64,000 nt of DNA from Candidatus Parcubacteria bacterium (lineage in GTDB: Bacteria > Patescibacteriota > Minisyncoccia > Phycocordibacterales > CAIJYI01). Below, piece by piece: positions 905 through 58,976 of the stretch. The position numbers were made by a program, and so were the translations under genes. The notes beneath the pieces are model-generated. The model was not told the origin of the DNA. It worked only from the letters and a program-made list of their open reading frames with translations, and ran no database searches. How positions within the stretch are numbered: position 1 is the stretch's first letter; each line of letters begins with the position of its first letter. The stretch lies in contig JAPLYL010000008.1 in assembly GCA_026395595.1 (NCBI GenBank), positions 56,417-120,416 of the forward strand, given 5' to 3'.

Positions 905-2227
905 TTAAGAGATATTCGCGGTAATGTTGTAGATTGGAATAAGAATGGACGCAAGGAGAAAACCGACGGCGACGGCGAGAGAAACTATCATGACAGGCTC
1001 GATCAAACCGACTAAAGTGTCTACAGCTTGCTCTGCTTCTCTTTTGTAGAAGGTGGCAAGAGTTTTGAGAATAGTAGAGAGCTCTCCTGTCTCTTCTCCG
1101 ACTTTAATCATCTGTACCATGATACTGGGGATTTCTTCTCTGTCGGAAAGAGATTCAGAAAGAGAGCTTCCCGCTTTTACTTTCTCTCCCGCCTCAACCA
1201 TGATGGCCATATAGGTAGGATCTCCGACGACTTTTCCCGCAATTTCTATGGAACGAAGCATTGGAACACCATTGGAAAGCATCGTATCAAGATTATCGGA
1301 AATGCGAGAAAGATAAGTTTTTTTGTAAAGCGTGCCAAAAAACGGGATATTAAGCTTGACTGAAGACCAGCCGTTGGCAGCTCCGGGAATACCGACTTTC
1401 CAGAAAATGACACCGGCAATGATGACAAAAATTAAGAAAAAGAATCCGTAATGAACGACAAAATCGCTCAAATTCATAACGATCTGCGTATAGAGCGGAA
1501 CAGATTGCCCTGATTCTTTCAAAACGTCAGCAAGTTTCGGAATGACAAGTACGAGCATGAGAGTCAACACACCGAAAAACGTACAAACAACAAAAGCCGG
1601 ATAGACCAAGGCATTCTTTGTTTTGGTGATAAGAGCCGATTCTCTTTCCATATAGGAAGCAAGATAGGCAAATGCTTCCGAGAGCTTTCCCGACTCCTCT
1701 CCCGATTTAATCATATTGACGTAAAAATCAGAAAAAATATCGGGATGTTTTTCAAGAGCGACAGAGAGAGATTCTCCTCCTTGGATGTCATCGGAAATTT
1801 CCCCCAATTTCTTTTGGAGCAACGGATTTTCTGTTCCTTCCGCAAGAAGACGGAAGATACGAAGAACGGAGACATGCGAATTAAAGAGAATGGATATCTG
1901 ATTGGAAAGCATTACCAGCTCTTTCAGTTTGACATGTTCAAACATTCCGGAGAATTTCGCCATGACCCCCTCGCCCCCTTCGGGGATAATGGACTCAATG
2001 ACAAATCCGCGACGCTGAAGAGAACTGATGGCGACATCAACATTTATGGCATCAATGGAACCGGTTTCTTCGGTTCCCGTCGGATTAAGAACTTTATAAG
2101 TGAAGAGCATAAAATAAATTAATAGCTTAAACTTTACTGATTGAGAAATTTGAAAAAATCTGAATAAAAGAGCGGGATTTTTAAAAGAATTTCTAATTAC
2201 TAATTTCCAATTTCTAAAAAAATCCAA
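905..2227 (-). CDS. pilC: Type IV pilus assembly platform protein PilC (GspF family)
   Basis: Two GspF-type domains and a three-TM topology. The ORF begins with TTG. The likely true start is the internal Met at about 2110 (MLFTYKVLNPTGTEETGS...). Confidence 0.85.
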   Translation of the reverse strand: MDFFRNWKLVIRNSFKNPALLFRFFQISQSVKFKLLIYFMLFTYKVLNPTGTEETGSIDAINVDVAISSLQRRGFVIESIIPEGGEGVMAKFSGMFEHVKLKELVMLSNQISILFNSHVSVLRIFRLLAEGTENPLLQKKLGEISDDIQGGESLSVALEKHPDIFSDFYVNMIKSGEESGKLSEAFAYLASYMERESALITKTKNALVYPAFVVCTFFGVLTLMLVLVIPKLADVLKESGQSVPLYTQIVMNLSDFVVHYGFFFLIFVIIAGVIFWKVGIPGAANGWSSVKLNIPFFGTLYKKTYLSRISDNLDTMLSNGVPMLRSIEIAGKVVGDPTYMAIMVEAGEKVKAGSSLSESLSDREEIPSIMVQMIKVGEETGELSTILKTLATFYKREAEQAVDTLVGLIEPVMIVSLAVAVGFLLASILIPIYNITANIS

Positions 2228-2281
2228 ATATCAAAAAAACGAATCATTTGTTTAGAAATTAGGAATTAGATATTAGAAATT
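2188..2281. repeat. Intergenic imperfect inverted repeat built from GAAATT/AATTTC units (family member 1 of 3)
   Basis: aatttctaattactaatttccaatttctaa ... ttagaaattaggaattagatattagaaatt are near-reverse-complement arms flanking ccaaatatcaaaaaa. It lies between pilT and pilC. Confidence 0.6.
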
Positions 2282-2283
2282 TT

Positions 2284-3351
2284 TTATAGCAGTCTTTCCA
2301 AACTTTTTGAGTTCGTGGAATAGAGAATCGCATTTTCTTGAGTAATTTCTCCGTTGTGTACCAGCTCGGCAAGGCTTCGGTTGAAGTCTATCATGCCGAA
2401 TTCGGCGCCGGTTTCAATGACGCGCGGAATTTCATGAGATCTTTTTTCGCGGATAAGATTGGAAACGGCATTGGTATTGATAAGAAGTTCGTAGGCGGGA
2501 ATTTGTCCGCCGGAAATGCGCGGAATTAAACGCTGGGAAAAGACTCCGAGCAAGCTTTCTGCCAGCTGCGCGCTAATCTGATTTTGCTGTTCGGGAGGGA
2601 AGGTATCAATGATACGATCAATGGTTTGGGTCGCGTCATTCGTATGGAGCGTGGAAAAAACAAGGTGTCCGGTCTCTGCGGCTGTAACGGCAACCGACAT
2701 AGTTTCGTGATCACGCATTTCCCCGATCATGACAACGTCTACGTCTTGGCGGAACATGGAGTACAGCCCCGTATGGAAATCCATCGTGTCGGTGTGTATT
2801 TCACGTTGGTCTATTATAGATTTTACCGGTTTAAAAAGGTATTCAACCGGGTCTTCAATAGTAAGAATATGTTCCGTTCTTTCTTGATTGATAAGTTGAA
2901 TCAATGCAGCGAGGGTGGTTGATTTTCCTTGCCCAATAGGGCCGACAACGAGGAAAAATCCTTGTTTTTTTCGAGCAAAAGTTTCCAGTATGGGAGGGAG
3001 ATTCAATTCTTCAATGTTGCGGACATATTCAGGAATAAGACGAAGCGCAATAGAAAGTATTCCTCTCTGAAAAAAAGCATTTCCGCGAAAACGGGCTTTA
3101 CTCCCATAACTATAAGAAAAATCAACTTCGTATTCTTTAAAAAGTTTCGCCTTTCGGTCATCGGTAAGCATAAGAGAAGCGAATTCAAGCATTTCTTCTT
3201 GAGTCAACGGTTCTTTTTTTACCAAAGGAACCAACTCGCCTACGGCACGAATATACGGTACGCGCCCGGCAGAAAGATGGAGGTCTGATCCGTTTTCACG
3301 GATGACCGTTAAAATAAGCTCTTCAAGTTCTCTTTTTGCGTCTAATGCCAT
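2284..3351 (-). CDS. pilT: Twitching motility / pilus retraction ATPase PilT
   Basis: Walker A GPIGQGKST, GEMRD motif and HLVFSTLHT. Length is 355 aa. Confidence 0.85.
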   Translation of the reverse strand: MALDAKRELEELILTVIRENGSDLHLSAGRVPYIRAVGELVPLVKKEPLTQEEMLEFASLMLTDDRKAKLFKEYEVDFSYSYGSKARFRGNAFFQRGILSIALRLIPEYVRNIEELNLPPILETFARKKQGFFLVVGPIGQGKSTTLAALIQLINQERTEHILTIEDPVEYLFKPVKSIIDQREIHTDTMDFHTGLYSMFRQDVDVVMIGEMRDHETMSVAVTAAETGHLVFSTLHTNDATQTIDRIIDTFPPEQQNQISAQLAESLLGVFSQRLIPRISGGQIPAYELLINTNAVSNLIREKRSHEIPRVIETGAEFGMIDFNRSLAELVHNGEITQENAILYSTNSKSLERLL

Positions 3352-8509: not shown

Positions 8510-9296
8510 GCGTATAACAATTTATGGACAGAAACTGTATTTTTATTATACCATAAAAACAATTATGCATTATAGGGAAAAGTCTCATTTATCCACAACT
8601 TCCATTTCTTGGTTGCAAAATACAGCAAAGGTATTCTATGATTTTATTCTTGATCTTTTTTTTCCAAGAAATTGCATTCTCTGCAAGAAAGACGGGGTCT
8701 TTTTTTGCGCGTCATGCAGAGGTAAAATGCCGATTGATACCACTCCGATGATCAATCATACTTTTTCTCTCTGGAGATACGACCATGAAACCGTACGGAA
8801 AGCGCTCTGGGAATTAAAATACCGCGGAAAACGCGGTTTAGCCCGAGACCTCGCGGAATCGCTCTACGACAAAATTCTTGAAACCCTCTCCGAAGAGGAA
8901 CTTTTCCAAAACCCTGCGGGAAAAGAAGAATGCTCAGACAGGTATATGGTCGTCCCCGTTCCCATTCACAAGAAGAGGAGAAAAGAACGAGGATATAATC
9001 AATCCGAACTTCTTGCCAAAGAACTTTCTTTATTAAACCACTCCCTTTTTATTCTTGAAAATAAAGTACTTCTCAAAACAAAAGCAACGCCGAGTCAGGT
9101 TTCCGTCAAAGACCGAGAAAAACGCCTGAAAAATATCAAAGGTTCTTTCACGATAAAAAATCCGGAAAAAATAATCGAGAAAAAAGTGCTCATTGTAGAT
9201 GATATCACCACCACGGGAGCCACCCTTTCTGAAGCACGACGATTATTAATAAAGTCCGGAGCAAAAAAAGTCTGGTGCGTGACGGTAGCGCATTAA
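8508..9296 (+). CDS. comFC: ComF family protein (ComFC; phosphoribosyltransferase domain with N-terminal zinc finger)
   Basis: CILCKK...CASCRG is a four-Cys zinc finger. The C-terminal PRTase motif is VLIVDDITTTGATL. It is divergent from pilM. The true start may be the internal Met at about 8565. Confidence 0.8.
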   Translation: MRITIYGQKLYFYYTIKTIMHYREKSHLSTTSISWLQNTAKVFYDFILDLFFPRNCILCKKDGVFFCASCRGKMPIDTTPMINHTFSLWRYDHETVRKALWELKYRGKRGLARDLAESLYDKILETLSEEELFQNPAGKEECSDRYMVVPVPIHKKRRKERGYNQSELLAKELSLLNHSLFILENKVLLKTKATPSQVSVKDREKRLKNIKGSFTIKNPEKIIEKKVLIVDDITTTGATLSEARRLLIKSGAKKVWCVTVAH

Positions 9297-11432: not shown

Positions 11433-11521
11433 CGGAGAGGTGGGTGAGCACGGTCGAAACCACCACACTGCTAACGTGGCAGGGGGTAAAACCCCTCGAG
11501 GGTTCGAATCCCTCCCTCTCC
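11433..11521 (+). tRNA. tRNA-Ser (anticodon GCU), class II with long variable arm
   Basis: Acceptor GGAGAGG/CCTCTCC with discriminator G. D stem GGT/ACC. Anticodon loop CTGCTAA. Variable arm GGGGGTAAAACCCC. T arm GAGGG-TTCGAAT-CCCTC. Confidence 0.85.
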
Positions 11522-11533
11522 GCAGTAAGTTTT

Positions 11534-11556
11534 TAGTATCGGAAGACCCGAGTGCC
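11534..11556. repeat. 23-bp direct repeat (copy 1) agtatcggaagacccgagtgcct, 13 bp after tRNA-Ser; putative island junction
   Basis: An exact second copy lies at 29682..29704. It contains the RACCCGAGTR core, which occurs at least 7 times in the window. It is embedded in a partial palindrome aagaccc...gggtctt. Confidence 0.7.
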
Positions 11557-11592
11557 TTGATATTCAAGGGTCTTTTGAATCACTGGAATCTC

Positions 11593-11628
11593 AAAAAGTT
11601 CGAACCTTTATGGGGTTCGAACTTTTTG
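11593..11628 (-). terminator. Terminator hairpin after the 1098-aa helicase gene
   Basis: Perfect palindrome aaaaagttcgaacc-tttatgg-ggttcgaacttttt. Confidence 0.6.
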
Positions 11629-11641
11629 TTACTTCGGACTA

Positions 11642-14600
11642 TTATTCACTGCAAATCACGTCAAGGTCAACGCCCACTGTTTCTTTAAGATAGCTATGTG
11701 CGGCCGCTAAAATCGCTGTTTGATCTGGTGTATGGTTGGTTTTTGATAATCCCGGTTGAACGATAATGATCTCAGCCCTGATTTCCTTGAATCTGCTTAT
11801 CTTTACAAATTTATTCATATCAGCTGATGAACCCAACAAGAAGCGAGTAACTCTTTCTTCGTTTGTGAGACGCTTTTCTCTGTCTAATATATGTTTGCAT
11901 AAATCCTTGAACTTCCATTTCCATTTAGCCGAACGGACCGCTTGCGAAGAAACCTCTACAACATCGCTAATACGTTCACCTGCTGTAGTTTCTGTTGTAA
12001 ATTTACAGTGAATTAAAGCTAATCTAATATGATCATCTTCCTCTTTGAAACAGACTAGATCGGCAGCCTCTCCTGCACCATCGTCATCAAATACTGTTTC
12101 AAAATTTCCAGCAATAAACTGTTGAGCGGCTCGCCATTGTATGGAATCTTCTCTTTGCGCTCCGTTCTTCCAAATAGACTCTTTGCGCAAATCAACACCC
12201 ACCCAATCCCACGCCTCAAATCTTTCTTCTGGGAAAATGAGTTCCTGGGTGTTTTGTGGCTTAATAAGTAGGTTGCCATCAAGTTCAGAAATATCAACGA
12301 ATCGAATCATTGGGGGATAGTTTGAAAAATATTCTTCAATCGGAAGTACTAAATTTCCAACTCGAATAGTAACCTGCTCTTGAGAGTTTTTTGTAACCTT
12401 AAAACCTTCATCACCACCAACAGTTAGTGACAGGTTTAACCAAACATCTTCAGGATCCGTAACTAACCTAAAATAAACTTGGCTGGTCACAATATCAGTT
12501 TTTATAAACTGAAGGTCAAACAATGAGACCGATTTTTCAATTCCTCCTTTTTTTAGAATGACTCTTTCTTCCGATTGCCTAATAATTTCAAGTGGCCATT
12601 CGATACTAAGAACCTGCTTGTCGGGTAACGCGGTTACTTCTTCGGGAATAAGCACGTTTGCAATAATATCAGCAGTATCTATGTTTCCATCTTTAATTTT
12701 TCCACCAACAGATTCACACCATTTGATAAGTTCAGGTATTGAACCTGGATCTCTGGCCCACACACGTCCTTTGTAAGAACAACCTATCGTTACAGGTTCT
12801 CCATTTTCCCAACCCGTGCCACTTAGATTGGATTTAACGGAACCGGCTCGTTCAGAAACGCTGAGCGCTGTTGCCACATCTGAACCGGTATACATTGCGT
12901 ATCGTAGATTGCGTCGGCCGTGTTTTGTCACCCCAACGTTTTGGAAGATTAATCTGTTAATTCGTCCAAGTGCGCGAAATATTATGTCTCCAGAAACGAG
13001 TTTTGTTGCACCAATAGCCCCGGCTATCTTTTCATGATTTGAAGATTTGTCGCTGGAGGAAACGAATAACAGATTGCGAGCTTCATCAAAATGAAAAACG
13101 TGTAAATCCCATATACGATCGCGAAGCTTTCGCGATCTTGTCCATCGAATCGGAGATTCAAGCCTTGTCACAAAATACAAAGTGTTTGATTCTTCATGAA
13201 TCCATACGCGATGCACATTTATACCCCTGGGTATTCCCTCAAAAAACTTTTTTGGCGTAAATGAATTTGCCTCATACATCAATGTACTAAATGTTGGACG
13301 CAACAAATGGTGGGATATTTCTATCTTTTCTTCATCTTCAGAGTTATCAAGAACTTCAGATGCATTCAAAAATGCAATGAGCTCGGAATGAGTCTTTGCC
13401 GCATCGGAACTAAATTCACTTAACAACTGATTCCAGTCAGCATCTTCACTATATAATCGCTCAAGAGCAGATGAAACATCTTGATCGGCAATGTTTGCTA
13501 CTACTGTGGCATCGCCGATTGCTTCACCAGCAGTTCGGGTAAATCTTCCCGTAAATTGAAGTAGAATTGCAAGACTTTTATGTGTATCATGAACAGCCGC
13601 AATTTTCAGTTGAGGTAAATCAAAACCTTCCCCAAGCATGTTTACACAAATAACGATACGACTCTGTCGAGATCTAATTTTTTCAATTGAAGCATCGGTT
13701 TCATCTTCCTCTGAGTGAATAAGAACGGGATTAAGGTCTGGTGCGATTCTATCATAGATAGCGTAGATAGTTCTGGCTCGACCAATACTGGCACATCTTG
13801 CCATCATAAGATGATCTTTTCCAGAAGCGAGGTCTCTTCGAAGTATTTCTACACCTTTTGTGGCAATTGCCTCATCGGCGTTTTCTTGGTCAATCTCATA
13901 TACAGGTTCAAAATTTATATTCTTGAAATACCCATCGTTTTGTGCTGAATGCAATGGATACTCATAAATAACTTTCCCATCAACAAGTTTCCCATCTCTT
14001 CGATAAGGGGTCGCTGTAAACTGCAAAACTCTGTTATCTTTAAACTTTTCTCGAAATGCACCCCACCCAACTGCTCCAACATGATGAGCTTCATCAACTA
14101 TAAGCGTCTTCACATAATCAGCAATAGGAAGAGGTGTATCACCAGAAGAATCGCTTTCCATTACGCTCATCGTCGCGATAACAACATTACATTTATTAAA
14201 AATATCTAAATCTTCTTCCGACTGAAGCCTTTTTTTGATTACTCCAACAATAGGATTTTTTGCTTCAGATGAAAGATTACCAAGGGACCGAAGTAGTCCG
14301 AGAGTAAGAAACTTTTTTGCTGTTTGGTCGCGCAACACTTTTGATGGAACAACCACGAGTAAACTTCCTGTCGAATAGGCAACGAGAGTTGCAAGCATAG
14401 CTTCTGTCTTTCCTGTGCCTGTTGGCATGACAATCGTAGCTGGTTGTTGATACAAACTCCAGTGAGCACCTATTGAATGAAGACTTCCGATTTGTGGTGG
14501 CCTTAATCCTTTTTTAGTTACAGTACCGACAAGGTCTTTTTCTTCGGATTGAAAATTGAATTTTCCATACCAGCTTTCAGTTATGTCTTTCGAAACTTTT

Positions 14601-14938
14601 TCTAAACCACCCTCGTCGACATCATATTTTAGAGCATTTAATTTTCGGTGTGCTATCCACTTCAACGCGTTTCCGAGTTGACCAAAAAGAACTCCATCAA
14701 CATCTCGAGGTAGTTCAAGTTTCTTCTTTTTTGTAATGAGTATTTTTTGACCGTCATCGAGAACATATAGAGTTTCTCTAACTCTTGGAGACGTAAAAAA
14801 TTCCTCAGTCCTGGATATGACTTTATTACCGCCTAAATCTAATACATGAGAAATAATGCCGATAGAATGCTTAATAGGCCCGAATTCTAATGGCGGGAGG
14901 AATAGCATATTCGGATTTTCTGGGTTTGAAGGGCTCAT
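11642..14938 (-). CDS. Large SF2 (ResIII/DEAH-type) helicase fused to an about 500-aa C-terminal domain of unknown function; defense-island-type protein
   Basis: Motif I MPTGTGKT, motif II DEAHH, motif III TATP and motif VI QFTGRFTR are in the N-terminal half. The C-terminal half has no recognisable family apart from a possible degenerate PD-(D/E)xK-like segment (ADLVCF...LALIHCKF). Confidence 0.7.
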   Translation of the reverse strand: MSPSNPENPNMLFLPPLEFGPIKHSIGIISHVLDLGGNKVISRTEEFFTSPRVRETLYVLDDGQKILITKKKKLELPRDVDGVLFGQLGNALKWIAHRKLNALKYDVDEGGLEKVSKDITESWYGKFNFQSEEKDLVGTVTKKGLRPPQIGSLHSIGAHWSLYQQPATIVMPTGTGKTEAMLATLVAYSTGSLLVVVPSKVLRDQTAKKFLTLGLLRSLGNLSSEAKNPIVGVIKKRLQSEEDLDIFNKCNVVIATMSVMESDSSGDTPLPIADYVKTLIVDEAHHVGAVGWGAFREKFKDNRVLQFTATPYRRDGKLVDGKVIYEYPLHSAQNDGYFKNINFEPVYEIDQENADEAIATKGVEILRRDLASGKDHLMMARCASIGRARTIYAIYDRIAPDLNPVLIHSEEDETDASIEKIRSRQSRIVICVNMLGEGFDLPQLKIAAVHDTHKSLAILLQFTGRFTRTAGEAIGDATVVANIADQDVSSALERLYSEDADWNQLLSEFSSDAAKTHSELIAFLNASEVLDNSEDEEKIEISHHLLRPTFSTLMYEANSFTPKKFFEGIPRGINVHRVWIHEESNTLYFVTRLESPIRWTRSRKLRDRIWDLHVFHFDEARNLLFVSSSDKSSNHEKIAGAIGATKLVSGDIIFRALGRINRLIFQNVGVTKHGRRNLRYAMYTGSDVATALSVSERAGSVKSNLSGTGWENGEPVTIGCSYKGRVWARDPGSIPELIKWCESVGGKIKDGNIDTADIIANVLIPEEVTALPDKQVLSIEWPLEIIRQSEERVILKKGGIEKSVSLFDLQFIKTDIVTSQVYFRLVTDPEDVWLNLSLTVGGDEGFKVTKNSQEQVTIRVGNLVLPIEEYFSNYPPMIRFVDISELDGNLLIKPQNTQELIFPEERFEAWDWVGVDLRKESIWKNGAQREDSIQWRAAQQFIAGNFETVFDDDGAGEAADLVCFKEEDDHIRLALIHCKFTTETTAGERISDVVEVSSQAVRSAKWKWKFKDLCKHILDREKRLTNEERVTRFLLGSSADMNKFVKISRFKEIRAEIIIVQPGLSKTNHTPDQTAILAAAHSYLKETVGVDLDVICSE

Positions 14939-15002
14939 TTTTGGGTGACGTGAGATAAGATTTAGATTTCATCACCACCACATTTTATCACTTTTGCAAG
15001 AT

Positions 15003-16328
15003 CTACGCTATTGTCACCACCCCCTTCGTAACTTTAATTTTTGACTTAAAACACCCCATCAATTCTCTCTTCTCTTCGTTCGTCCCTTCTCGGAGAATAT
15101 ATTGGGCGTACGTTTTTGAATCTATTTCCTTGTAGGTTTCTTTTGGGTTTGTCATTCCGAGCACCTTTCTTTGAAATTTGTTCATTCGTTTTAATTCCTC
15201 ATCAAATTTATGTTTGATGCCGAGATTATTGAAGTCTATTTGATCCAGTACTTTTAAAAGTTGTTCAACTAATTCTTCTTCTCGAAGGTACTGACATTTG
15301 CAGTGCCTGTCTTTTGACCTTCCGCATCCATAGTAAATGTATTTTGCGGTCGTTCCATCTTTGAGTACTTTATATTTCTCTTCGGCTGAAATTCCTGATC
15401 CACACAATCCACAGACCATAAGTTTTGTAAAAGCGAATTCTTTGCTTTGTCGATGAATATCATCTCGTTTCAACTGTTCTTGAACTTTATCAAAAAGTTC
15501 TTTTTCAATGATCGGTTCATGTTTTCCGGTATACCAGTTTCCGGACTTTTTCGGGTATTCAAAAACTCCGTAATAAAACGGATTCGATAATGCCCGGTAA
15601 ATATTTCCAAGAGCGACATTATGATTTCCTACCGATTTAAAATTGAGTTCAAATTTTAACCATTGATGAATTTTTCGCCCCGACCATTTTTCATAAGCGA
15701 CTTTTTCATACATTTTTTTAACAATAGGAGCCCTGTCTGGATCTATGGTAACTTGGCATTTTCTATCAATTCTTTTTTCGTTCAAATATCCAAGCGGAGC
15801 GATTCCCGGCCACAGCCCCATTTCAACCCTCGTCCGAAGCCCGCGCTTTACGTTTATTCCGCGATTGTCATTTTCAAGCTTTGCCTGAGATCCAAGAATC
15901 ATCAACAAGAATTTTTCGTTTGGATTATTCCGGAAGCTTTGGCTGAATGTTCGAATCTCTACCAGTTTTCCTGCATCCATCAAGTCTACGATTTTTCCGA
16001 GATCTCCCGCATTACGACTGATACGATCCGGCGCCCATGTCAGAATCCCAGTAAACTTCCCGGCACGTAATTCTTCAACAATCTCATTAAATACAGGCCG
16101 TTGTCCAGTTTCCTTCGCCGAGTGCGATTCGCGCTTCATTGTTACGACCTCTAACCCTTCCCGATCCGCCAGTTGGAGCATTTCCTTAATCTGGCTGTCT
16201 ATTGAAAGCACCTGTCTTTCCTCTGATTCGGTACTCTTTCTCGCATAAAGGCAGTATTTTACCGCCGTTGGAACCTCTATTTTAGCCCTGGTTCCCGCTG
16301 GCATTTGCATTGTTTCCATATGTCTCAT
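15003..16328 (-). CDS. Large serine recombinase (resolvase catalytic domain + recombinase domain + zinc ribbon)
   Basis: YARKSTESEERQ...SIDSQ catalytic Ser region. LTWAPDRISRN. GLWPGIAPLGY recombinase domain. CGLCGSG...YYGCG zinc ribbon. Confidence 0.9.
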   Translation of the reverse strand: MRHMETMQMPAGTRAKIEVPTAVKYCLYARKSTESEERQVLSIDSQIKEMLQLADREGLEVVTMKRESHSAKETGQRPVFNEIVEELRAGKFTGILTWAPDRISRNAGDLGKIVDLMDAGKLVEIRTFSQSFRNNPNEKFLLMILGSQAKLENDNRGINVKRGLRTRVEMGLWPGIAPLGYLNEKRIDRKCQVTIDPDRAPIVKKMYEKVAYEKWSGRKIHQWLKFELNFKSVGNHNVALGNIYRALSNPFYYGVFEYPKKSGNWYTGKHEPIIEKELFDKVQEQLKRDDIHRQSKEFAFTKLMVCGLCGSGISAEEKYKVLKDGTTAKYIYYGCGRSKDRHCKCQYLREEELVEQLLKVLDQIDFNNLGIKHKFDEELKRMNKFQRKVLGMTNPKETYKEIDSKTYAQYILREGTNEEKRELMGCFKSKIKVTKGVVTIA

Positions 16329-16447
16329 TAATGACGCAACCCTCCTAAGGAGTCCAGAGCGACCCGAGTAGGTAACTTTTGCACAAAATATCCGTTTTAC
16401 TTTAATGAAAATTAAGTGTAAACTTATGTTAAGTTAACACTTTTGCT

Positions 16448-16633
16448 ATGACTACATCAAACACGGGAGATATCATTACGCTTAAGGAGGCATGCGAACT
16501 GCTGAACTGTCATCCGAATACCCTGCGAAAATGGGATAACTCCGGTTTCTTGAAAGCGATCCGTTTTGGTGCACGGCGCGACCGGCGGTATCATCGTGCC
16601 GATATTGAGAAATTAATTTCCCAAAAAACATAA
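16448..16633 (+). CDS. Small HTH DNA-binding protein (excisionase/MerR-like HTH_17); candidate RDF or controller
   Basis: ITLKEACELLNCHPNTLRKWDNSG helix-turn-helix. Length is 61 aa. It is the first gene of the MTase operon and lies next to the recombinase. Confidence 0.6.
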   Translation: MTTSNTGDIITLKEACELLNCHPNTLRKWDNSGFLKAIRFGARRDRRYHRADIEKLISQKT

Positions 16634-16635
16634 TT

Positions 16636-17751
16636 ATGAAAGATAAAGTTTCAAACGCCAGCCTTCATGGGGCAAAAAAAGCAAAGAAAGATGAGTTTTA
16701 TACTCAGCTTGTTGATATTGAAAAAGAATTGAAACATTATAAAGATCAGTTTCGTGGCAAGGTGGTATATTGCAACTGTGATGATCCATTTGAAAGTAAT
16801 TTTTTTAAGTATTTTGCCGCTAATTTCAATGCTCTCGGGTTGAAAAAACTTATCGCCACGAGTTACAAGCCATCCCCCATAGCCAATACACAACTGGGAC
16901 TATTTGGCGTAGATAAAGTACTTGCTTCACCAAAAGGACGCCCCAAAGTAACCGCTAACAAATTTATTATCAATGAGGTTAGTGACATAGACGGCGACGG
17001 TGCATTTGATTTACGTGACGTTGCCGAGCAACTTAAGGCTAATAAAAACAATGAGTGGGCCCCATTAGAAGATGAAGGAGATTTTAGAAGTAAAGAAAGC
17101 ATAGAACTGCTAAAGCAGGCTGATATTGTCGTAACTAACCCGCCATTTTCGTTATTTCGGGAATATATTGCACAGATTGTAGAATACGACAAAAAGTTTT
17201 TAATTATCGGCAATATAAATGCGGTTACTTATCAGGAATGTTTTAGACTTGTTCAAAATGATAGAATGTGGCTCGGGGCAAGTATTCATAGCGGTGATCG
17301 TGAATTTCGCGTTCCGAATGATTACCCGCTTGAAGCCGCGGGTTGTAGAGTGGACGAGAGCGGTAATAAATATATCCGCGTCAAAGGTGTCCGTTGGTTT
17401 ACGAATTTGGATTATAAAGAACGTCATGAAGATTTAGTATTGTACAAAAAATACACACCAGAAGAGTATCCTTTATACGACAATTATAGTGCAATTAATG
17501 TTGATAAGACGGCCGATATTCCAATGAGTTACGTTGGGGAGATGGGTGTTCCGATTACATTTCTTGATAAATACAATCCTGATCAATTTAAAATTGTAGG
17601 TGCTCTAATATCTGGCCCACTTGGGCATGAATTGGGAGCAACTAAAACGCAACAGATTAGACCGAACGGAAAGACAACATTGGAATACGGACCAATTATC
17701 AACAAAAAAGGATATTATGGAAGAATTGTTATTAAAAACAAGAAAATATGA
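16636..17751 (+). CDS. N6-adenine DNA methyltransferase (NPPF motif; EcoRI-methylase-family-like)
   Basis: Motif IV VVTNPPF and an upstream CNCDDPFESNFF motif I-like region. The stop overlaps the next gene's start (ATGA). Confidence 0.65.
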   Translation: MKDKVSNASLHGAKKAKKDEFYTQLVDIEKELKHYKDQFRGKVVYCNCDDPFESNFFKYFAANFNALGLKKLIATSYKPSPIANTQLGLFGVDKVLASPKGRPKVTANKFIINEVSDIDGDGAFDLRDVAEQLKANKNNEWAPLEDEGDFRSKESIELLKQADIVVTNPPFSLFREYIAQIVEYDKKFLIIGNINAVTYQECFRLVQNDRMWLGASIHSGDREFRVPNDYPLEAAGCRVDESGNKYIRVKGVRWFTNLDYKERHEDLVLYKKYTPEEYPLYDNYSAINVDKTADIPMSYVGEMGVPITFLDKYNPDQFKIVGALISGPLGHELGATKTQQIRPNGKTTLEYGPIINKKGYYGRIVIKNKKI

Positions 17752-18854
17752 AAATTGAACTAAACAGAATTAAAATACGCGAAGTAATAGAAGAATACAA
17801 AGACAGCGCCGAGGAGGGTGTTGTGGCTTACGGTGGCAAACTTGATGTTCGTCCAAAATATCAGCGTGAGTTCGTCTACAAAGACAAGCAGCGAGATGCG
17901 GTTCTTGATACTATCAAAAAAGGATTCCCACTCAACGTCTTGTACTGGATGGTGCGTGAAGATGGCGGTTATGAACTACTCGATGGACAACAGCGAACGA
18001 TTAGCATTGGTCAGTATATCAGCGGTGACTTTTCGCTAGATGACCGTTATTTTCACAATCTCACAAAAGAAGAACAAGAGCAGATATTGAATTACGAATT
18101 GATGATTTATTTCTGCGAAGGTACAGATAAAGAAAGACTGGGCTGGTTCAAAACTATCAATATCGCGGGTGAAAAATTAACAGATCAGGAATTACGCAAC
18201 GCCGTTTACACTGGCCCGTGGCTTTCTGACGCAAAACTAAAATTCAGTAAATCAAATTGCGCCGGATACCTTTTGGCAAATGACGGTGGCACATTACTCA
18301 CCGGTTCGCCGATCCGGCAAGAATATCTGGAAACCGCACTTTCTTGGATCAATGATGACGAAGTGGCGGGCTATATGGCAAAACACCAGCACGACAAAAA
18401 CGCAAATGAATTGTGGGAGTATTTCCAAAATGTCATTGCTTGGGTACGAAAAACATTCACAAACTATCGCAAAGAAATGGCTCATGTAAACTGGGGCGAA
18501 TTGTACAACGAATTTAAAGATAAGAAGTTGGATTCAAAAAAGTTGGAAGCTGAAATCTTTAAATTGATGCAAGACGAGGACGTAACGAAAAAATCCGGTA
18601 TCTATCCTTATGTTCTCACAAAGCAAGAAAAACATCTTTCCATACGTGCATTCAACGATAAAATGAAACGCGAAGCATACGAGCGACAGGAAGGAATTTG
18701 TCCGCATTGCAAAGGAGAGAATAAGAAAAAGAAATGGGAAATTGAAGAAATGGAAGCCGATCACGTCACCCCATGGCACGAAGGTGGTAAAACGACCGCG
18801 GAAAATTGTCAGATGTTGTGTAAAGAAGATAATCGACGGAAATCGGGGAAATAA
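17748..18854 (+). CDS. DUF262 (ParB/Srx-like DGQQR NTPase) fused to C-terminal HNH endonuclease; GmrSD/BrxU-like
   Basis: DGQQRT motif in the N-terminal domain. C-terminal CPHCKG...ADHVTPWHEGG...NCQMLCKEDNRRK is the HNH signature. Translationally coupled to the MTase. Confidence 0.75.
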   Translation: MKIELNRIKIREVIEEYKDSAEEGVVAYGGKLDVRPKYQREFVYKDKQRDAVLDTIKKGFPLNVLYWMVREDGGYELLDGQQRTISIGQYISGDFSLDDRYFHNLTKEEQEQILNYELMIYFCEGTDKERLGWFKTINIAGEKLTDQELRNAVYTGPWLSDAKLKFSKSNCAGYLLANDGGTLLTGSPIRQEYLETALSWINDDEVAGYMAKHQHDKNANELWEYFQNVIAWVRKTFTNYRKEMAHVNWGELYNEFKDKKLDSKKLEAEIFKLMQDEDVTKKSGIYPYVLTKQEKHLSIRAFNDKMKREAYERQEGICPHCKGENKKKKWEIEEMEADHVTPWHEGGKTTAENCQMLCKEDNRRKSGK

Positions 18855-18857
18855 GCC

Positions 18858-21059
18858 ATGATTAATAAAATTCTAAAAATCGAAGGACTAGGAAAGTTTA
18901 AGAAGTTTTCCAATACAGGAAACGACGATTTGAAATTCTTGAAATACACTGTTATTTTCGGTTACAACACATACGGAAAAAGTACTCTGACAACCATTTT
19001 TAGATCTCTTAAAGATTCCGATCAAAAACGCCTGAATGGAAAGAAAAGTTTTGGATTCATTGGAAATCTTGCCATCGATATATTGGATGAGACTGGTCAA
19101 CACCTAACACTTGCAAACGGCAAATGGAGCAATCCTAATATAGCTATTTTTGATAATTATTTCACCCATAGCTCTGTTTTTGTTGGAGATGAAATAGGTC
19201 ACAAACACAAGTCATCTTTGTATGGAGTTTTTGTCGGGGAGGATATCAGACAACAAATTTCTAAGTTAAAAGAACTGCGGGGTGAGCAAGATGCCTTAGA
19301 AAAAGAGCGTGACAAAATTAAGTCTGAATACACAAAAGGGTATCTTGGAACTTTCGATGCCTTTCTTGGAAAGGAAGCGGTTGATGGAGTTGAAGAGAAA
19401 AAAGAAACTAAAAAGAAAGAAATTCAAAGGATAAAGAACTCCGTTTCGCTTAAACAACTTATTGCGAGCTCTCCATTTGCAAGTAAGTTCGAGAAATTTT
19501 CGGCATCAATGCAAAAAACACTTGATACCTCAGCTGAAACGAATATCGAAAATCATGTAAAATCTCATTGGAAAGATGTTACAGCCTCCAAAAATTTTCT
19601 GGCCGCAGGCGTTGATTTATTGAAAGACGGTACGAACACTTGTGTTTTCTGTGGGCAGGGCCTCACGCCCGTGGTAAATCTTATCAAAGACTTCAAAAAT
19701 GTTTTTGGGGCTACCTACAAAGAAACACAGCAGGAAATAGAAAAAATTGGCGAGGCGTTCTTGCGATTTGATGTAGAAGCTGAAATGGCAAAATTCACTC
19801 CGCTCGGGGTTATCTGCGAAGAAATATACAACAAGGATGTTTTGTTAAAAAATAAAAATATCCTCGACGAAGATGTTCGCAAAAAACTTAAGAATTTAAA
19901 TTACGCAATTGATGTTACTTCAGCTATAAGCCCCTTCAAATCTTTTGTTGCGGAAATAGTAAAATTACATCCAACTTTTGAGATGCTTAAGACTCAGGAG
20001 TTTTCTACTATAAAACAAACCGCATTGGAAAACGAACTGAAACAATTAGAACTCGCACAATATCGCCACGGGGAGGAAGGTGTCGCTCTTGCTCAAAAAT
20101 TTACCAAGGCCATTATAGCCGTTGAAACCAAAAAAACAGAAATCGATACTCTACGAAAAAAGATTGACGAAGCAACCAAAGATACTATTGGAAAAAACCA
20201 GAAGCAAGTTAATACAATACTTACGGATGTATTAAAGGCGGATTTCACAATCCAAAAAATGAGCGGTCAATCAAATTTAACCAGAGCTAATGCTCACTCT
20301 ATAGATTATGAATTCGTTATAAACGAAAATATCGTTCCCATATCCAATAAACACTTACAGACTGATGAGGAGCCATTAGACAAACCATATTTCGGAAATA
20401 CACTTAGCGATAGTGATAGAAGATTGCTCGCACTCGCGTTCTTCATTGCCAGCTTGCAAACGGATAGTAATCTGAAAGACAAGATAATTGTTTTAGATGA
20501 TCCATTTTCTAGCTTTGATTCAAATAGAAAAGATTATTTGGCGAGAATGATTATTGATATCCAGAACGAGAAAAAGGAACGACCGGGACAAATAATCGTT
20601 ATGACACACGACGATGGGTTTCTTGGTCGACTCCAATCAAAATTACCGTCATCTGACACGAAAGTACTTAAGATTAAAAACTCCGTTGCCGATGGCTCAG
20701 TTTTAGACAAATGTGATGTTGATGAAATTATCGAGGAAGAATATTTCAAAAACATAAAGCACATCAAAGAGGCAGCAGATAAAACAAGGGATGTAGATAG
20801 TGCCCTGAAACGGGTTCGTCCATGTCTTGAGCGAGTTTTACGACATAAGTACTATTTTTGTCTTGATAAAGAAACACTTGAGAGCGGAAGCATAACCTCT
20901 TATCTTGAAAAAATTGATAAAAAGTGCGTGATAAAAGATGAAATACTGAAAAGTGGTTGGCACGAACACATGCACGATGAACACGAGATTATGAAATTAT
21001 TGGAGCCGGAAAAAGTTCAAAAATTGAAGGATTTTCTTGTTCTCCTTGAAAAAATATAG
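18858..21059 (+). CDS. Rad50/SMC-like ABC ATPase with coiled-coil insert carrying a CxxC zinc-hook motif; PrrC/RloC-like or Septu PtuA-like candidate
   Basis: Walker A GYNTYGKST near the N-terminus. About 450-aa coiled-coil region containing CVFCGQGLT (compare Rad50 hook CPVCGR). Walker B IIVLDDPFSSFD, H-loop VMTHD, and an about 170-aa C-terminal tail (RPCLERVLRH...WHEHMHDEH). Confidence 0.65.
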   Translation: MINKILKIEGLGKFKKFSNTGNDDLKFLKYTVIFGYNTYGKSTLTTIFRSLKDSDQKRLNGKKSFGFIGNLAIDILDETGQHLTLANGKWSNPNIAIFDNYFTHSSVFVGDEIGHKHKSSLYGVFVGEDIRQQISKLKELRGEQDALEKERDKIKSEYTKGYLGTFDAFLGKEAVDGVEEKKETKKKEIQRIKNSVSLKQLIASSPFASKFEKFSASMQKTLDTSAETNIENHVKSHWKDVTASKNFLAAGVDLLKDGTNTCVFCGQGLTPVVNLIKDFKNVFGATYKETQQEIEKIGEAFLRFDVEAEMAKFTPLGVICEEIYNKDVLLKNKNILDEDVRKKLKNLNYAIDVTSAISPFKSFVAEIVKLHPTFEMLKTQEFSTIKQTALENELKQLELAQYRHGEEGVALAQKFTKAIIAVETKKTEIDTLRKKIDEATKDTIGKNQKQVNTILTDVLKADFTIQKMSGQSNLTRANAHSIDYEFVINENIVPISNKHLQTDEEPLDKPYFGNTLSDSDRRLLALAFFIASLQTDSNLKDKIIVLDDPFSSFDSNRKDYLARMIIDIQNEKKERPGQIIVMTHDDGFLGRLQSKLPSSDTKVLKIKNSVADGSVLDKCDVDEIIEEEYFKNIKHIKEAADKTRDVDSALKRVRPCLERVLRHKYYFCLDKETLESGSITSYLEKIDKKCVIKDEILKSGWHEHMHDEHEIMKLLEPEKVQKLKDFLVLLEKI

Positions 21060-21127
21060 GGCTGTAAGTGGTAATAGGTGAATCAAACAAAAAGGAACTC
21101 ATTAAGTTACTTTGTCTTCGTTGAAAC

Positions 21128-21140
21128 GGGGGGGGGGGGG
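21128..21140. repeat. Homopolymeric G13 tract in convergent intergenic region
   Basis: 13 consecutive G in an AT-rich genome. Possible slipped-strand site or assembly artefact. Confidence 0.6.
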
Positions 21141-21175
21141 CGAATATCGTGGAAAATTATGCATTGAAAATTGTC

Positions 21176-24040: not shown

Positions 24041-24194
24041 GATAGGTGATTCAAAAGTATCACACTATAAGCAATGCGTCAAAAAAGTTTTCTATTTAGA
24101 TCCGACAAAACTTGTTGATAACCACCCCTTCGCAACCGCTTCTTTTTAAGCTAAGGTACATGGACTAATAGTACTTTTTGCGCTATTATGTTCA

Positions 24195-24426
24195 TTGACA
24201 ACTGAATATTCTGGTCGGAAGACCAGGTACCTAACCCCGAAAGATTTTCTTTCGGATATGGTACGGAATCCCATGGAAGACACTGAACCCTGCGTTCAGC
24301 GACTCTTCCATGGGTCATATCGGGAAACTGGTATGGGACCGAAAGGTCTAGCTGGCGCAGGGTTCAGTGTACCCACTGTTTCTCTCGCCAGCTACTTAAT
24401 AGCTGGTTTTTATTCTCTCTAATAAT
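24195..24426 (+). promoter_or_regulatory. GC-rich highly structured leader ending in terminator hairpin directly upstream of ORF 24427 (riboswitch/attenuator or sRNA candidate, class unknown)
   Basis: Nested palindromes ccatggaaga...tcttccatgg and ctgaaccctgcg...cgcagggttcag. Terminal ccagcta-cttaat-agctgg plus TTTTT sits 10 nt before the ATG. The 75-aa ORF here is not credible. Confidence 0.4.
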
Positions 24427-25173: not shown

Positions 25174-25540
25174 GTACCGTATAAATATTTAACTTGGTAA
25201 TCGGAGGAACGAACTCGCTATCGGGCGTTTTCTGATTCTTTGTTTGGTAGTCCGGATGGCATCTCTCGAGTTGGAATTTCACGGCTTGCATATTGTTCTG
25301 CTGGATATTTTGGATAAGATGCGTATGAGCAAGATCATTCACGAAGCTTTTTCCAAGGTTGATAGCATTATCCGCCTTAAGAGCAAATGGCCGTTCCTCT
25401 TTCCATGTGTAGAAAGTTTCTCGACTAATACCGGCTCGTTTGCAGGAATACCATATATTTCCCGAATCGCGGAGAAATTCAAGTACTTTTTCTTGCATTC
25501 TATGAGTCCTCTCTTTCACGTCTGATGATTTTTTCGCCAT
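25145..25540 (-). CDS. Phage terminase-small-subunit-like HTH protein
   Basis: SCKRAGISRETFYTWKEE resembles TerS/insertion-element HTH. It is adjacent to the ParB-MTase as in phage packaging modules. The true start may be the internal Met (MQEKV...) abutting the MTase stop. Confidence 0.5.
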   Translation of the reverse strand: MAKKSSDVKERTHRMQEKVLEFLRDSGNIWYSCKRAGISRETFYTWKEERPFALKADNAINLGKSFVNDLAHTHLIQNIQQNNMQAVKFQLERCHPDYQTKNQKTPDSEFVPPITKLNIYTVPMKKTDEQI

Positions 25541-57264: not shown

Positions 57265-57311
57265 AATACCCCCATTTTAGCATATTTTCCAAAGGTGTGC
57301 AGTCCGTCCGT

Positions 57312-57380
57312 TTAGAAATTAAAAATTGGAAATTAGAAATTAGAAATTAGAAATTTTTAGATTCGCCAAATATCAAAAAA
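57312..57380. repeat. Tandem GAAATTAG-type repeat array plus ccaaatatcaaaaaa (family member 2 of 3)
   Basis: ttagaaattaaaaattggaaattagaaattagaaattagaaattttt is the reverse complement of the arm at 2188..2217. The ccaaatatcaaaaaa box is shared with locus 1. Confidence 0.6.
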
Positions 57381-57416
57381 CAATGCGCTTTGTTTTACAC
57401 AAAGCGCATTGTTTTC
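57381..57416 (-). terminator. Terminator after secY
   Basis: caatgcgctttgt-tttaca-caaagcgcattg is a perfect 13-bp stem followed by a T-run on the minus strand. Confidence 0.6.
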
Positions 57417-57429
57417 AAGATTTAGTATT

Positions 57430-58728: not shown

Positions 58729-58807
58729 AAAGATGGTGTGACAATGGTTATTTATTTACCTTGCGTACTCTGTTTGAATTTACCACTCGAGTCATATGAC
58801 ACAAATA

Positions 58808-58913
58808 ATTTCCAATATCCAATTTCAAATTTCAAATAAAATGTCCAATGTCTAAATACGGTTTCAACATTTAGATTTTCATTGGGAATTTGAAATTGGA
58901 TATTGGAAATTTT
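58808..58913. repeat. Intergenic inverted repeat of AATTTC/GAAATT units (family member 3 of 3) between rplO and secY
   Basis: aatttccaatatccaatttcaaatttcaaa ... gaatttgaaattggatattggaaatttt are reverse-complement arms around an about 45-bp spacer. Confidence 0.6.
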
Positions 58914-58976
58914 CAAAAATCAAGCCTCTCTCTTTCGCTCAAAATTCCCGCATAAAGCGAGAATTTGAAGAAACAT

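Follow-up and report, generated by a model that had tools for sequence, protein, structure and literature searches.

A lineage-specific family of heptanucleotide-array repeats in the operon spacers of a Parcubacteria genome

Heptad arrays at three intergenic sites

The window analysed here, 64,000 nucleotides of a Candidatus Parcubacteria contig, carries repeat elements in three intergenic spacers: between a pilT-like and a pilC-like gene (locus 1), downstream of secY (locus 2) and between rplO and secY (locus 3). An earlier note on this DNA had described inverted-repeat elements at these places, and we found all three where it had put them, with the pilT-like, pilC-like, secY and rplO genes correctly called as their neighbours (Table 1). 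Tandem Repeats Finder returned period-7 arrays at 2188-2217, 2252-2281, 57312-57355, 58807-58837 and 58881-58911, all five with 4.3-6.3 copies. A heptad-array detector run on the 64 kb reported 5 arrays, exactly those of the three sites, against a mean of 0.06 in shuffled sequences, and the pattern AATNNCN repeated three times gave 10 overlapping matches in the window, all within the three sites, with 0.03 expected. The heptad of the window arrays is AAT-W-Y-C-Y. Thus the tandem units described previously are real, but their heptanucleotide nature, known from other bacteria (PMC4692102, PMC4679880), had been overlooked. That the host operons are highly expressed was assumed in the earlier note.

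Table 1. Repeat elements, neighbouring genes and context features in the window
Feature	Position	Strand	Remarks
pilC-like T2SSF gene	905-2110	-	gene call
Locus 1 palindromic element	2184..2285	.	between pilT and pilC (both -); 40-nt arms, 22-nt centre
Locus 1 arm, four-heptad module	2188..2215	+	AATTTCT AATTACT AATTTCC AATTTCT; period-7 array
Box CCAAATATCAAAAAA, first copy	2224..2238	+	centre of locus 1 hairpin; one of two exact window copies
Locus 1 other arm, four-heptad module	2254..2281	-	AATTTCT AATATCT AATTCCT AATTTCT; period-7 array
pilT-like T2SSE gene	2284-3351	-	gene call
RAYT-like IS200-like Y1 gene, 222 aa	48925-49593	-	Pfam PF01797, E = 1.3e-17
Promoter-like site TGCACA-16-TAAAAT with upstream TG	57274..57301	-	promoter scan; for 398-aa gene 56068-57264(-)
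Locus 2 solo six-heptad array	57314..57355	-	AATTTCT x3, AATTTCC, AATTTTT, AATTTCT; transcription direction; no inverted partner
Box CCAAATATCAAAAAA, second copy	57366..57380	+	on the gene strand, T-tail and spacer after secY terminator
secY intrinsic terminator	57376..57416	-	context only, not a family member; 18-pair stem, 6 G-C pairs, then T run
secY	57430-58728	-	gene call
Locus 3 palindromic element	58807..58911	.	between rplO and secY (both -); 50-nt arms, 5-nt loop
Locus 3 arm, four-heptad module	58807..58834	+	AATTTCC AATATCC AATTTCA AATTTCA; period-7 array
Locus 3 other arm, four-heptad module	58884..58911	-	AATTTCC AATATCC AATTTCA AATTCCC; period-7 array
Small G+C hairpin AAATTCTCGC-TTTAT-GCGGGAATTT	58941..58966	-	context; directly after rplO stop codon, upstream of heptad hairpin
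rplO	58977-59441	-	gene call

The inverted-repeat architecture ascribed to all three sites applies to loci 1 and 3, which no other inverted repeat of the window exceeds in length (I2 at locus 1, arms 85% complementary; I1 at locus 3, arms 80% complementary), but not to locus 2, a single direct array. For the gene strand, the predicted RNA folds have -27.6 kcal/mol (z -3.2) at locus 1 and -42.2 kcal/mol (z -6.1) at locus 3; for the + strand the values are -31.7 (z -5.6) and -41.4 (z -8.0), respectively. The sole strong hairpin beside locus 2 is that of the secY terminator (inverted repeat I19), the stem of which is maintained by compensatory changes in the relatives L001 and L002; the locus 2 array lies between this terminator and the next promoter-like site and ends 13 nt upstream of the first hexamer of that site (TGCACA). 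The array counts six units in the window versus four in the orthologous arrays of L001, L128 and L129. The box CCAAATATCAAAAAA, reported as common to loci 1 and 2, indeed has exact copies only at 2224 and 57366, and no other site in the window matches it with fewer than two mismatches. The small G+C hairpin that follows the rplO stop codon is conserved in L001, L128 and L002.

The building block of the family is a 28-bp module of four AAT-W-Y-C-Y heptads, that is, a heptanucleotide simple-sequence array. Within a module the heptads follow one another head to tail, and there is no internal dyad symmetry. Two modules, inverted around a 20-55-bp centre, make up a palindromic element of 100-125 bp with inverted arms of 28-40 nt and no ORF, which resembles a REPIN doublet or a MITE, and the lone module at locus 2 is a half-element. 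The rules of composition are strict: AAT occupies positions 1-3 in 123/123 heptads of 30 arrays, with variation confined to positions 4-7 (chi-square p = 1e-11), an array length of exactly four units is found in about 27 of 33 cases, and the inverted pairs are all of one polarity, 5'-AATTTC...GAAATT-3' (9/9). A tandem-repeat search of 238 kb from the clade gave 37 rows for period 7, one for period 6 and nine for period 8. Furthermore, with multiples of 3 left aside, period 7 ranks first in 514 kb of distant Parcubacteria, in which heptad arrays with other units are present, and a GTDB pattern scan found heptad arrays, among the matches listed, across many phyla and in many Patescibacteria. At rplO-secY and pilT-pilC, the end of the hairpin lies 72-81 nt before the start codon in all eight hairpins (8/8). 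Heptads were also found just upstream of start codons that have no Shine-Dalgarno sequence (L135, L155).

Turnover of the elements among close relatives

The rplO-secY spacer measures 108-247 bp at SecY identities of at least 76% and mostly 1-36 bp in distant Parcubacteria. Its variants fold into long hairpins in 10/10 cases and belong to at least five unrelated sequence types; the fold z-scores range from -4.6 to -10.2 in nine of the ten and reach -2.3 in the remaining one. Every close relative retains a long hairpin of some type in this spacer. In L001, the SecY of which is 97% identical, the upstream flanks are near-identical and the heptads of both arms have been rewritten into arms of 4 and 6 units, with only 14 nt of flank in common between this hairpin and its window ortholog. 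The arm of locus 1 at 2254..2281, on the other hand, shares a 24-nt exact match with the same rplO-secY hairpin of L001. The arms of the L002 hairpin pair poorly and retain the heptad register. Swapped asymmetric inner arms raised the idea that the hairpin core is inverted in L128 relative to the window; the idea was dropped, since such an inversion could not be told from ordinary palindrome evolution.

Likeness between copies does not follow the orthology of loci. Aligned over 129 nt, the pilT-pilC copy of L206 shows 77-79% identity with the rplO-secY copies in L128 and L174, level with the 79.8% identity of orthologous copies among themselves, and loci 1 and 2 have an exact 15-mer in common. 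Moreover, presence of the element varies: in L205, with a PilC 98% identical, the pilT-pilC spacer is 36 bp long and free of a hairpin, and a third family site, comF-pilM, is filled in L206 and empty in L207, L208 and the window. The suggestion of a small dispersed repeat family made in the earlier note is thus borne out by arms and an inner core of identical type at three unlinked loci of the clade and by their presence or absence in close relatives.

No target-site duplication is definable in the filled-versus-empty comparisons (window with L205; L206 with L207, L208 and the window; the clade with L004), since the A+T-rich flanks have diverged in all of them. In about 0.75 Mb of Parcubacteria DNA, no inverted heptad modules were found to flank a transposase-sized segment with a recognisable transposase, and the one transposase-like gene of the window, the Y1 gene, has different ends. 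What we observe is a family of defined anatomy whose copies are unstable and whose positions persist. Gain, loss, exchange between loci and resizing by unit slippage far outpace change in the flanking genes. Of the three roles considered previously (MITE-like element, RNA processing or attenuation site, protein-binding array), MITE-like behaviour has the most support.

Possible action in the operon mRNA and competing explanations

We give about even chances to the reading that the sites belong to one lineage-specific, non-coding repeat family of REPIN/MITE-like character, with arms of heptad arrays, which probably acts as an intercistronic RNA hairpin. The RNA role is suggested by position. 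Neither a sigma-70-type promoter nor a terminator was called at loci 1 and 3 by consensus scans and a two-hexamer promoter scan, and because the elements at these loci separate genes that run in the same direction, with neither a promoter nor a terminator detectable, they are most likely transcribed within the operon mRNA. The transcribed element would be predicted to fold into an A/U-rich stem of 28-45 bp, which may most plausibly serve as a target of a double-strand-specific RNase, as a barrier to 3'-exonucleases or as a partial roadblock. Such a hairpin would make the dosage of secY and pilC independent of the cistrons upstream. A search of Rfam 15 at gathering thresholds gave no match at the three sites; a known RNA family was rejected, as the E-value mode returned only generic long-hairpin microRNA-precursor models with 20-33 bits against thresholds of 83-211.

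The stem itself draws weak support from covariation, which we did not use as proof of structure. In an alignment of nine family members, 94.7% of cells are paired compared with 92.6% in shuffles, a value reached by 5/500 shuffles, and the RNAalifold covariation term is +0.55; with heptads that hardly vary, the excess of pairing is only marginal. Neither the invariance of AAT nor the existence of solo modules is explained by a pairing constraint. In addition, the persistence of hairpins of changing sequence could reflect palindromic elements that insert preferentially into existing hairpins, with no selected function.

An alternative that we consider improbable, but worth weighing, places the action at the level of DNA: the heptads would be half-sites for a small DNA-binding protein, or the A+T-rich module an UP-like element, and the hairpin potential a by-product of sites laid out in inverted order. 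Ribbon-helix-helix repressors on direct or inverted runs of 7-bp heptads, and ToxR/H-NS at TTTTGAT in the ctx promoter, offer models. The invariant AAT and the fixed four-unit length are what a sequence-specific footprint predicts, unlike a pairing constraint, and the existence of solo modules, the retention of the heptad register in L002 despite poor complementarity and the short distance of the locus 2 array from a -35-like hexamer point the same way, as do the orthologous solo arrays of L128 and L129, which precede extended -10 motifs by 27-35 nt. The interval of 72-81 nt between hairpin and start codon would leave room for a promoter and a short leader. However, no consensus promoter was found downstream of either hairpin, at locus 1 or at locus 3; the stretch from the hairpin to the start codon shows no conservation even where the proteins are 97% identical; and very close relatives can do without the elements. 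Furthermore, sister lineages fill the same spacer with hairpins of quite different units, so that a single regulator would not recognise them all, and the same arrays occur within housekeeping ORFs of other candidate-phyla genomes. By eye, extended -10-like motifs can be seen, such as TGGTAAATT, which follows the locus 3 hairpin at a distance of 22 nt; they are not conserved between relatives. Such motifs could be secY promoters missed by the two-hexamer scan, in which case the arrays would occupy the positions of UP elements or activator sites.

Much less probable in our judgement are neutral simple-sequence repeats, in which replication slippage, biased towards 7-nt units in many bacteria, would create arrays independently in A+T-rich spacers, with neither dispersal nor function. 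In many bacterial genomes, heptamers do outnumber the other long simple-sequence repeats (Mrazek 2007, as cited in PMC4679880 and PMC4692102), the unit number at locus 2 differs among close relatives, and heptad arrays of other units are found in distant Parcubacteria and, among the matches listed, in many phyla. Against this stand the ordered 28-bp module, the inner core and the exact 15-24-mers common to unlinked loci, of which the core, being non-repetitive, already refutes the neutral reading in part, an array length tightly fixed at about four units instead of being broadly distributed, the complete freedom of positions 1-3 from variation and the single polarity of the inverted pairs.

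It is very unlikely that the heptad doublets are REPINs mobilised as single-stranded hairpins by the RAYT-like Y1 transposase of the window. The window does encode such a 222-aa protein (PF01797), which scores 76.9 bits on the NCBIfam model of REP-associated tyrosine transposases, below the cut-off of 80, and the architecture of doublets plus singlets is that of REPINs (PMC3116915). Nevertheless, the Y1 gene has 20-bp inverted palindromic repeats of its own, CAAAGGTACCTGACCC(C/T)TTT, which bear no relation to the heptads and occur nowhere but at the two ends of the gene, analogous palindromes, GGTGTC(A/T)GACACC, are present at its homologue in L153, the heptad modules are not palindromes themselves, and L001 has heptad elements and lacks a Y1 gene at the corresponding site. 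A link between the heptads and this gene was rejected because of its different flanking repeats. Generic A+T-rich intrinsic terminators or effects of composition, the null explanation of the earlier note, can practically be set aside: although 4-5 T follow the hairpin in some copies (window locus 1, L001, L128), the terminator scan left locus 1 without a call and, around loci 2 and 3, picked out the secY terminator alone, genuine terminators here have G+C-containing stems and T6 tails in place of long A/U-rich heptad stems, the motif exceeds the shuffled expectation at least 100-fold, and the elements sit between genes of a single operon. A DNA uptake sequence was ruled out by density, since about five arrays per 64 kb are far too sparse.

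Relation to known repeats and a wider reading

REP hairpins act as intercistronic mRNA stabilisers. The clade elements resemble REPs and REPINs (Bertels and Rainey 2011, PMC3116915) in their inverted doublets of about 100 nt that form long intergenic hairpins, in singlets that appear as half-elements, and in dispersal within the genome and rapid turnover. They differ from them in that a REP is a short imperfect palindrome and the clade module a tandem heptad array, and in that the cognate RAYT is flanked by REPs, whereas the RAYT-like gene of the window is flanked by palindromes of the CAAAGGTACCTGACCC type and not by heptads (PMC3116915 for the REP side). The family is a variant, not yet described, of the known bacterial heptanucleotide repeats and no new kind of system; literature searches for heptamer repeats in Patescibacteria returned nothing specific.

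Correia/NEMIS elements of Neisseria are MITEs of 100-150 bp with terminal inverted repeats of about 26 bp and no ORF, inserted between operon genes. Their presence or absence differs among strains, and the co-transcribed hairpin of the terminal repeats is a substrate of RNase III. The clade elements are likewise small, ORF-less inverted repeats between operon genes with presence/absence polymorphism; in contrast, their terminal repeats are internally periodic (4 x 7 bp) with changing unit number, and no duplication of TA or another target is demonstrable at the clade sites compared.

Contiguous heptads also serve as operators. The omega repressor of pSM19035 binds WATCACW heptads. TTTTGAT heptads lie in the ctxAB promoter, according to a preprint (bioRxiv 10.1101/2021.05.14.444153). 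The likeness consists in contiguous 7-bp units, direct and inverted, of variable number and near promoters, and the difference in that the omega and ctxAB arrays are contiguous and have a known binder, whereas the clade arms lie 20-55 bp apart. Moreover, the clade elements are dispensable between near-identical strains.

The closest parallels are the STRR of heterocystous cyanobacteria and the GGGAATC/GGGGAYT repeats of Xanthomonas and Nostoc, which are heptanucleotide long simple-sequence repeats (Rehm et al. 2015, PMC4692102; Mrazek 2007, as cited therein). They share with the clade arrays tandem 7-bp units, mostly in intergenic DNA and between genes of like direction, one or few unit families in each genome, variation in copy number and a marked preference for four units (PMC4692102). 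In contrast, the clade units are A+T-rich and have no G tracts, so that the G-quadruplex account offered for the four-unit preference of those repeats is inapplicable here; as a rule the clade modules flank a conserved centre as inverted pairs and behave like a dispersed element, and their host is a reduced candidate-phyla genome. The TAACTGA heptamers of marine Beggiatoaceae (MacGregor 2015, PMC4679880) form runs of 2-6 units in intergenic spacers, including those of ribosomal-protein operons, often just upstream of start codons without a Shine-Dalgarno sequence, as in L135 and L155, and a post-transcriptional role has been proposed for them as a hypothesis (PMC4679880). Their strongly gene-oriented arrangement, with 169 direct sets against one indirect (PMC4679880), differs from that of the clade family, mostly inverted doublets at a distance of 72-81 nt from the start codon.

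Since the cyanobacterial STRRs, heptanucleotide repeats have been a known feature of bacteria, and their origin, four-unit preference and function are still unexplained. The present family shows that the period-7 and four-unit rules also hold where the unit is A+T-rich and the candidate-phyla genome very small; its modules form hairpin doublets of mobile appearance where operon genes meet, as between rplO and secY. Natural 'knock-outs' and replacements between near-identical strains exist in the clade, and the question is therefore testable with metatranscriptomes. For annotation, the case cautions against taking long spacers within Parcubacteria operons for missed genes, since they are repeat insertions.

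A bolder and rather doubtful possibility is that the 28-bp (AAT-W-Y-C-Y)x4 module is a unit that propagates actively throughout the candidate phyla radiation, with putative sequence-specific machinery that writes or recognises it. If so, the module would represent a novel type of mini mobile element or of nucleic-acid code and an A+T-rich counter-example to the G-quadruplex account of the bacterial heptamer four-unit rule. The four-unit length, the invariant AAT, the occurrence of both doublets and solos, and in-frame copies in housekeeping genes are compatible with such a unit. The in-frame copies within housekeeping genes belong to other Patescibacteria and are exemplified by a 12-residue FPISNFQFPIKS insertion in MnmA; of 14 ORF-embedded arrays examined, 12 have the sense orientation.

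Heptad arrays in the window and the 28-bp module

The window is DNA of Candidatus Parcubacteria/Paceibacterota, and its SecY matches with 100% identity an NCBI MAG protein listed under that name. The earlier note had claimed GAAATT/AATTTC inverted repeats at three intergenic sites, and all three sites are present: the pilT-pilC spacer (locus 1), the region downstream of secY (locus 2) and the rplO-secY spacer (locus 3), with flanking genes on the minus strand throughout. Tandem Repeats Finder returned five period-7 arrays, and a heptad-array detector run over the 64 kb recovered exactly these five (0.06 in shuffled sequence); the pattern AATNNCN x3 matched ten times, always within the three loci (0.03 expected). 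The inverted-repeat arrangement holds for loci 3 and 1, which are the longest two inverted repeats of the 64 kb and fold much more strongly than shuffles on both strands, but not for locus 2, a single direct array without partner arm that counts six heptads in the window versus four in L001 (L numbers denote fetched sequences of relatives or other database contigs). The box said to be common to loci 1 and 2 is an exact 15-mer, CCAAATATCAAAAAA, with exactly two copies in the window, one in the middle of the locus 1 hairpin and the other adjacent to the locus 2 array.

Positions of features in the window and, where prefixed, in other contigs
Feature	Position	Strand	Remark
A-rich repeat family	867-906, 37248-37332; L205:1433-1468; L129:2795-2925		GAAAAGGAAWAAGCAA..CAAGAAAAAAGGARACG
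pilC-like platform protein	905-2110	-	downstream of locus 1 element
Locus 1 arrays	2188-2217, 2252-2281		period 7
pilT-like ATPase	2284-3351	-	upstream of locus 1 element
Block upstream of pilM	8510-8600; L206:1350-1447; L207; L208	- (window)	strongly conserved
Predicted mobile island	11434-27522		probable; adjoins tRNA gene
tRNA gene	11434-11522		
Large serine recombinase	15003-16328		in island
LOOT RNA motif (Rfam RF03000)	24228-24349, 47151-47266	+	84 and 68 bits; gathering score 46.4
IS200/RAYT-like element	48918-49644		
Y1 transposase, 222 aa	48925-49593	-	Pfam PF01797, E = 1.3e-17
secY to ~397-aa gene	56068-57430; L001:4364-6275; L002:11299-14728; L004:11299-14105		variable gene content
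Promoter-like site	57301-57274	-	after locus 2 array, before 398-aa gene without family match
Locus 2 array	57312-57355		period 7
secY terminator	57416-57376	-	after secY, before locus 2 array
secY	57430-58728	-	downstream of locus 3 element
Locus 3 arrays	58807-58837, 58881-58911		period 7
rplO	58977-59441	-	upstream of locus 3 element

Among 123 heptads from 30 arrays of the window and relatives, AAT is invariant at positions 1-3, followed by T/A at position 4, T/C/A at position 5, C in 85% at position 6 and T/C/A at position 7; departures from the consensus fall at positions 4-6 only (chi-square p = 1e-11). Since array length is nearly always four units (28 bp), many arrays follow a common ordered pattern (e.g. 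AATTTCY-AATATCY-AATTYCY-AATTTCY) and inverted pairs show a single polarity, 5'-AATTTC...GAAATT-3' (9/9), what recurs is a defined 28-bp module and not an open-ended slippage product, although the number of units still changes, as at locus 2.

Heptanucleotides are the commonest long simple-sequence repeats in many bacteria (Mrazek 2007, as summarised in PMC4679880 and PMC4692102). In Xanthomonas and Nostoc, GGGAATC and GGGGAYT repeats are found between co-directional genes, with a preference for four units (PMC4692102), and TAACTGA repeats of Beggiatoaceae occupy intergenic spacers, ribosomal operons included (PMC4679880). Among the GTDB matches listed, AATWYCN x4 arrays occur in many phyla and many Patescibacteria, often as inverted pairs, and those of candidate phyla have four or five units only. 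The present family is A+T-rich, which makes a quadruplex impossible. It therefore belongs to the already known heptanucleotide repeats, the new features being this composition, the arrangement as REPIN/MITE-like doublets and the candidate-phyla host; a literature search on heptamer repeats in this lineage found no published description.

Spacers of relatives and dispersal of the family

Orthologous loci were fetched through relatives of SecY (L001-L004, L125-L204) and PilC (L205-L208). In distant Parcubacteria (SecY ~60% identical) the rplO-secY spacer mostly measures 1-36 bp, lengths of about 270-300 bp being artefacts of a short rplO; in the close clade (SecY at least 76% identical) it spans 108-247 bp and holds a long hairpin in every case. 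Fold z-scores of these spacers lie between -4.6 and -10.2, with the exception of L129 (-2.3). Within the close clade the hairpin sequence depends on lineage, with arms of AATTTCY heptads (window, L001, L128, L002/L131, L174, L130) or of the 8-mer AATTTAAC (L125-127), A-rich heptads (L129), a non-repetitive stem (L132) or G+C-rich stems (L004). Between the window and L001 (SecY 97% identity), the end of rplO and the first half of the spacer are nearly identical, both heptad arms are re-written (position 7 C/A to T) and the 78 nt before the secY start cannot be aligned. The pilT-pilC spacer measures 36 bp and lacks a hairpin in L205 (PilC 98% identity); it contains an AATTTCY hairpin in L206 and large hairpins of other sequence in L207 and L208.

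Over 129 nt, the pilT-pilC element of L206 shows 77-79% identity to its rplO-secY counterparts in L128 and L174, the inner core AATAAAATGNCTAAT...ATTAGGATTTTTATT included, and orthologous elements are no closer to each other than these copies. A 24-nt exact match connects the L001 rplO-secY arm with the window pilT-pilC arm, and a third L206 copy lies in the divergent comF/pilM spacer, a site that is element-free in L207, L208 and the window. Taken together, the spacer comparisons, the paralogy and the third site show a dispersed family whose copies are gained, lost and exchanged between loci. This supports the earlier note's interpretation in part, namely its dispersed repeat family, as copies of the same type occupy unlinked loci and are present or absent among close relatives.

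Every rplO-secY or pilT-pilC heptad hairpin has its 3' end 72-81 nt ahead of the start codon that follows (window 2110-2188 and 58728-58807; L001, L002, L128, L130, L174, L206), and the stretch in between is not conserved in sequence.

Possible action of the elements

Loci 1 and 3 lie between co-directional genes, with neither promoter nor terminator detected; on the simplest reading of this arrangement their elements would be transcribed inside the operon mRNA and would fold into A/U-rich stems of 28-45 bp. At the rplO-secY junction some long hairpin was kept through at least five sequence replacements, which suggests that the hairpin as such is important at this position. It might serve as a processing site, as a barrier to exonucleases or as a partial roadblock and could uncouple the dosage of secY from that of the ribosomal proteins; pilC could be uncoupled from pilT in a similar way.

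The main rival is a role at the DNA level, with heptads as candidate binding sites or UP-like modules, for which the invariant AAT, the fixed four-unit length, solo modules just upstream of promoters and the 72-81-nt spacing of every hairpin would argue; the elements, however, are dispensable in near-identical strains, and sister lineages carry different units at the same spot. An RNA-hairpin function is what we infer rather than observe, because covariation support for the stem is marginal, hairpin-seeking insertion of palindromic elements could create the same pattern without any function, and the argument is drawn from genome sequences.

The heptad elements matched no known RNA family, and their hairpins were rejected as terminators of this genome's type. 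Nor are they the repeats that partner the RAYT-like Y1 transposase, whose gene lies between palindromic 20-bp inverted repeats of its own, with no other copies in the window, and whose homologue in L153 has analogous ends.

Other repeats and probable mobile DNA

The Y1 protein scored 76.9 bits against the NCBIfam REP-associated tyrosine transposase (cut-off 80), and the palindrome CAAAGGTACCTTTG lies within its 20-bp repeats. In L001, cupredoxin and recG have no such element between them. The L153 homologue (556-1227, 58% identical) lies within a ribosomal-protein operon, flanked by GGTGTC(A/T)GACACC palindromes with a target duplication of ~20 bp.

A second, A-rich family with 7-bp periodicity comprises one inverted pair with 41-nt arms between two co-directional genes and one solo copy, also conserved in L205, immediately downstream of the pilC stop codon; the L129 rplO-secY hairpin is likewise made of A-rich heptads. 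A G+C-rich family with TCGCCGGACG... (L002:11470-11560, L004:11390-11480, L207:7900-8010, L208:9780-9900) recurs in relatives beside or nested in their heptad arrays and large hairpins, and the related AAACGGACGGAC follows the window locus 2 array as well as L002:12200. Between secY and the conserved ~397-aa gene, the window and L128 have no gene, L001 and L004 an NYN-domain gene, and L002 and L004 three or four reversed genes without assigned function; this region is an insertion hot spot beside the solo heptad array.

Heptad arrays also occur in ribosomal-protein operons of distant Parcubacteria (L135:1288-1366, 2423-2450; L155:2766-2793; L136 and L198 upstream of rplO), where they occupy whole intercistronic spacers and stop 8-10 nt short of start codons that lack a Shine-Dalgarno motif. 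Their units include AATTTCT, AATCCTA and AGCTAAT, and the rplF-rplR array has opposite orientations in L135 and L155. In GTDB Patescibacteria, four-unit arrays (AATTTCC/AATTTCA/AATATCA) lie in frame within long housekeeping ORFs (L018, L023, L025, L027, L030, L031, L069, L082, L091, L093, L104, L122), in sense orientation in 12/14; FPISNFQFP is one of the peptides they encode. Compared with solved MnmA structures, the L018 MnmA has the array as a 12-residue insertion, the TatD-like protein of L023 aligns gap-free across its array, and in L069 the in-frame TAA is abolished by a G at the end of one unit. Viral-classified IMG/VR contigs of higher G+C (L209, 3540-3760 and 6190-6265; L210; L228) carry GGAAATT...AATTTCT hairpins of opposite arm polarity and short G+C loop, one of them tandemly triplicated with a 78-bp unit.

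Besides the recombinase, the predicted mobile island encodes an EcoRI-type adenine methylase, a GmrSD/HNH nuclease, an AAA_13 ATPase, helicase-nuclease genes and two N6/N4 DNA methylases. The block upstream of pilM, CTGTGGATAA...TTTTCCCTA...TATGGTATAAT, probably represents the promoter of the pilus operon together with an operator.
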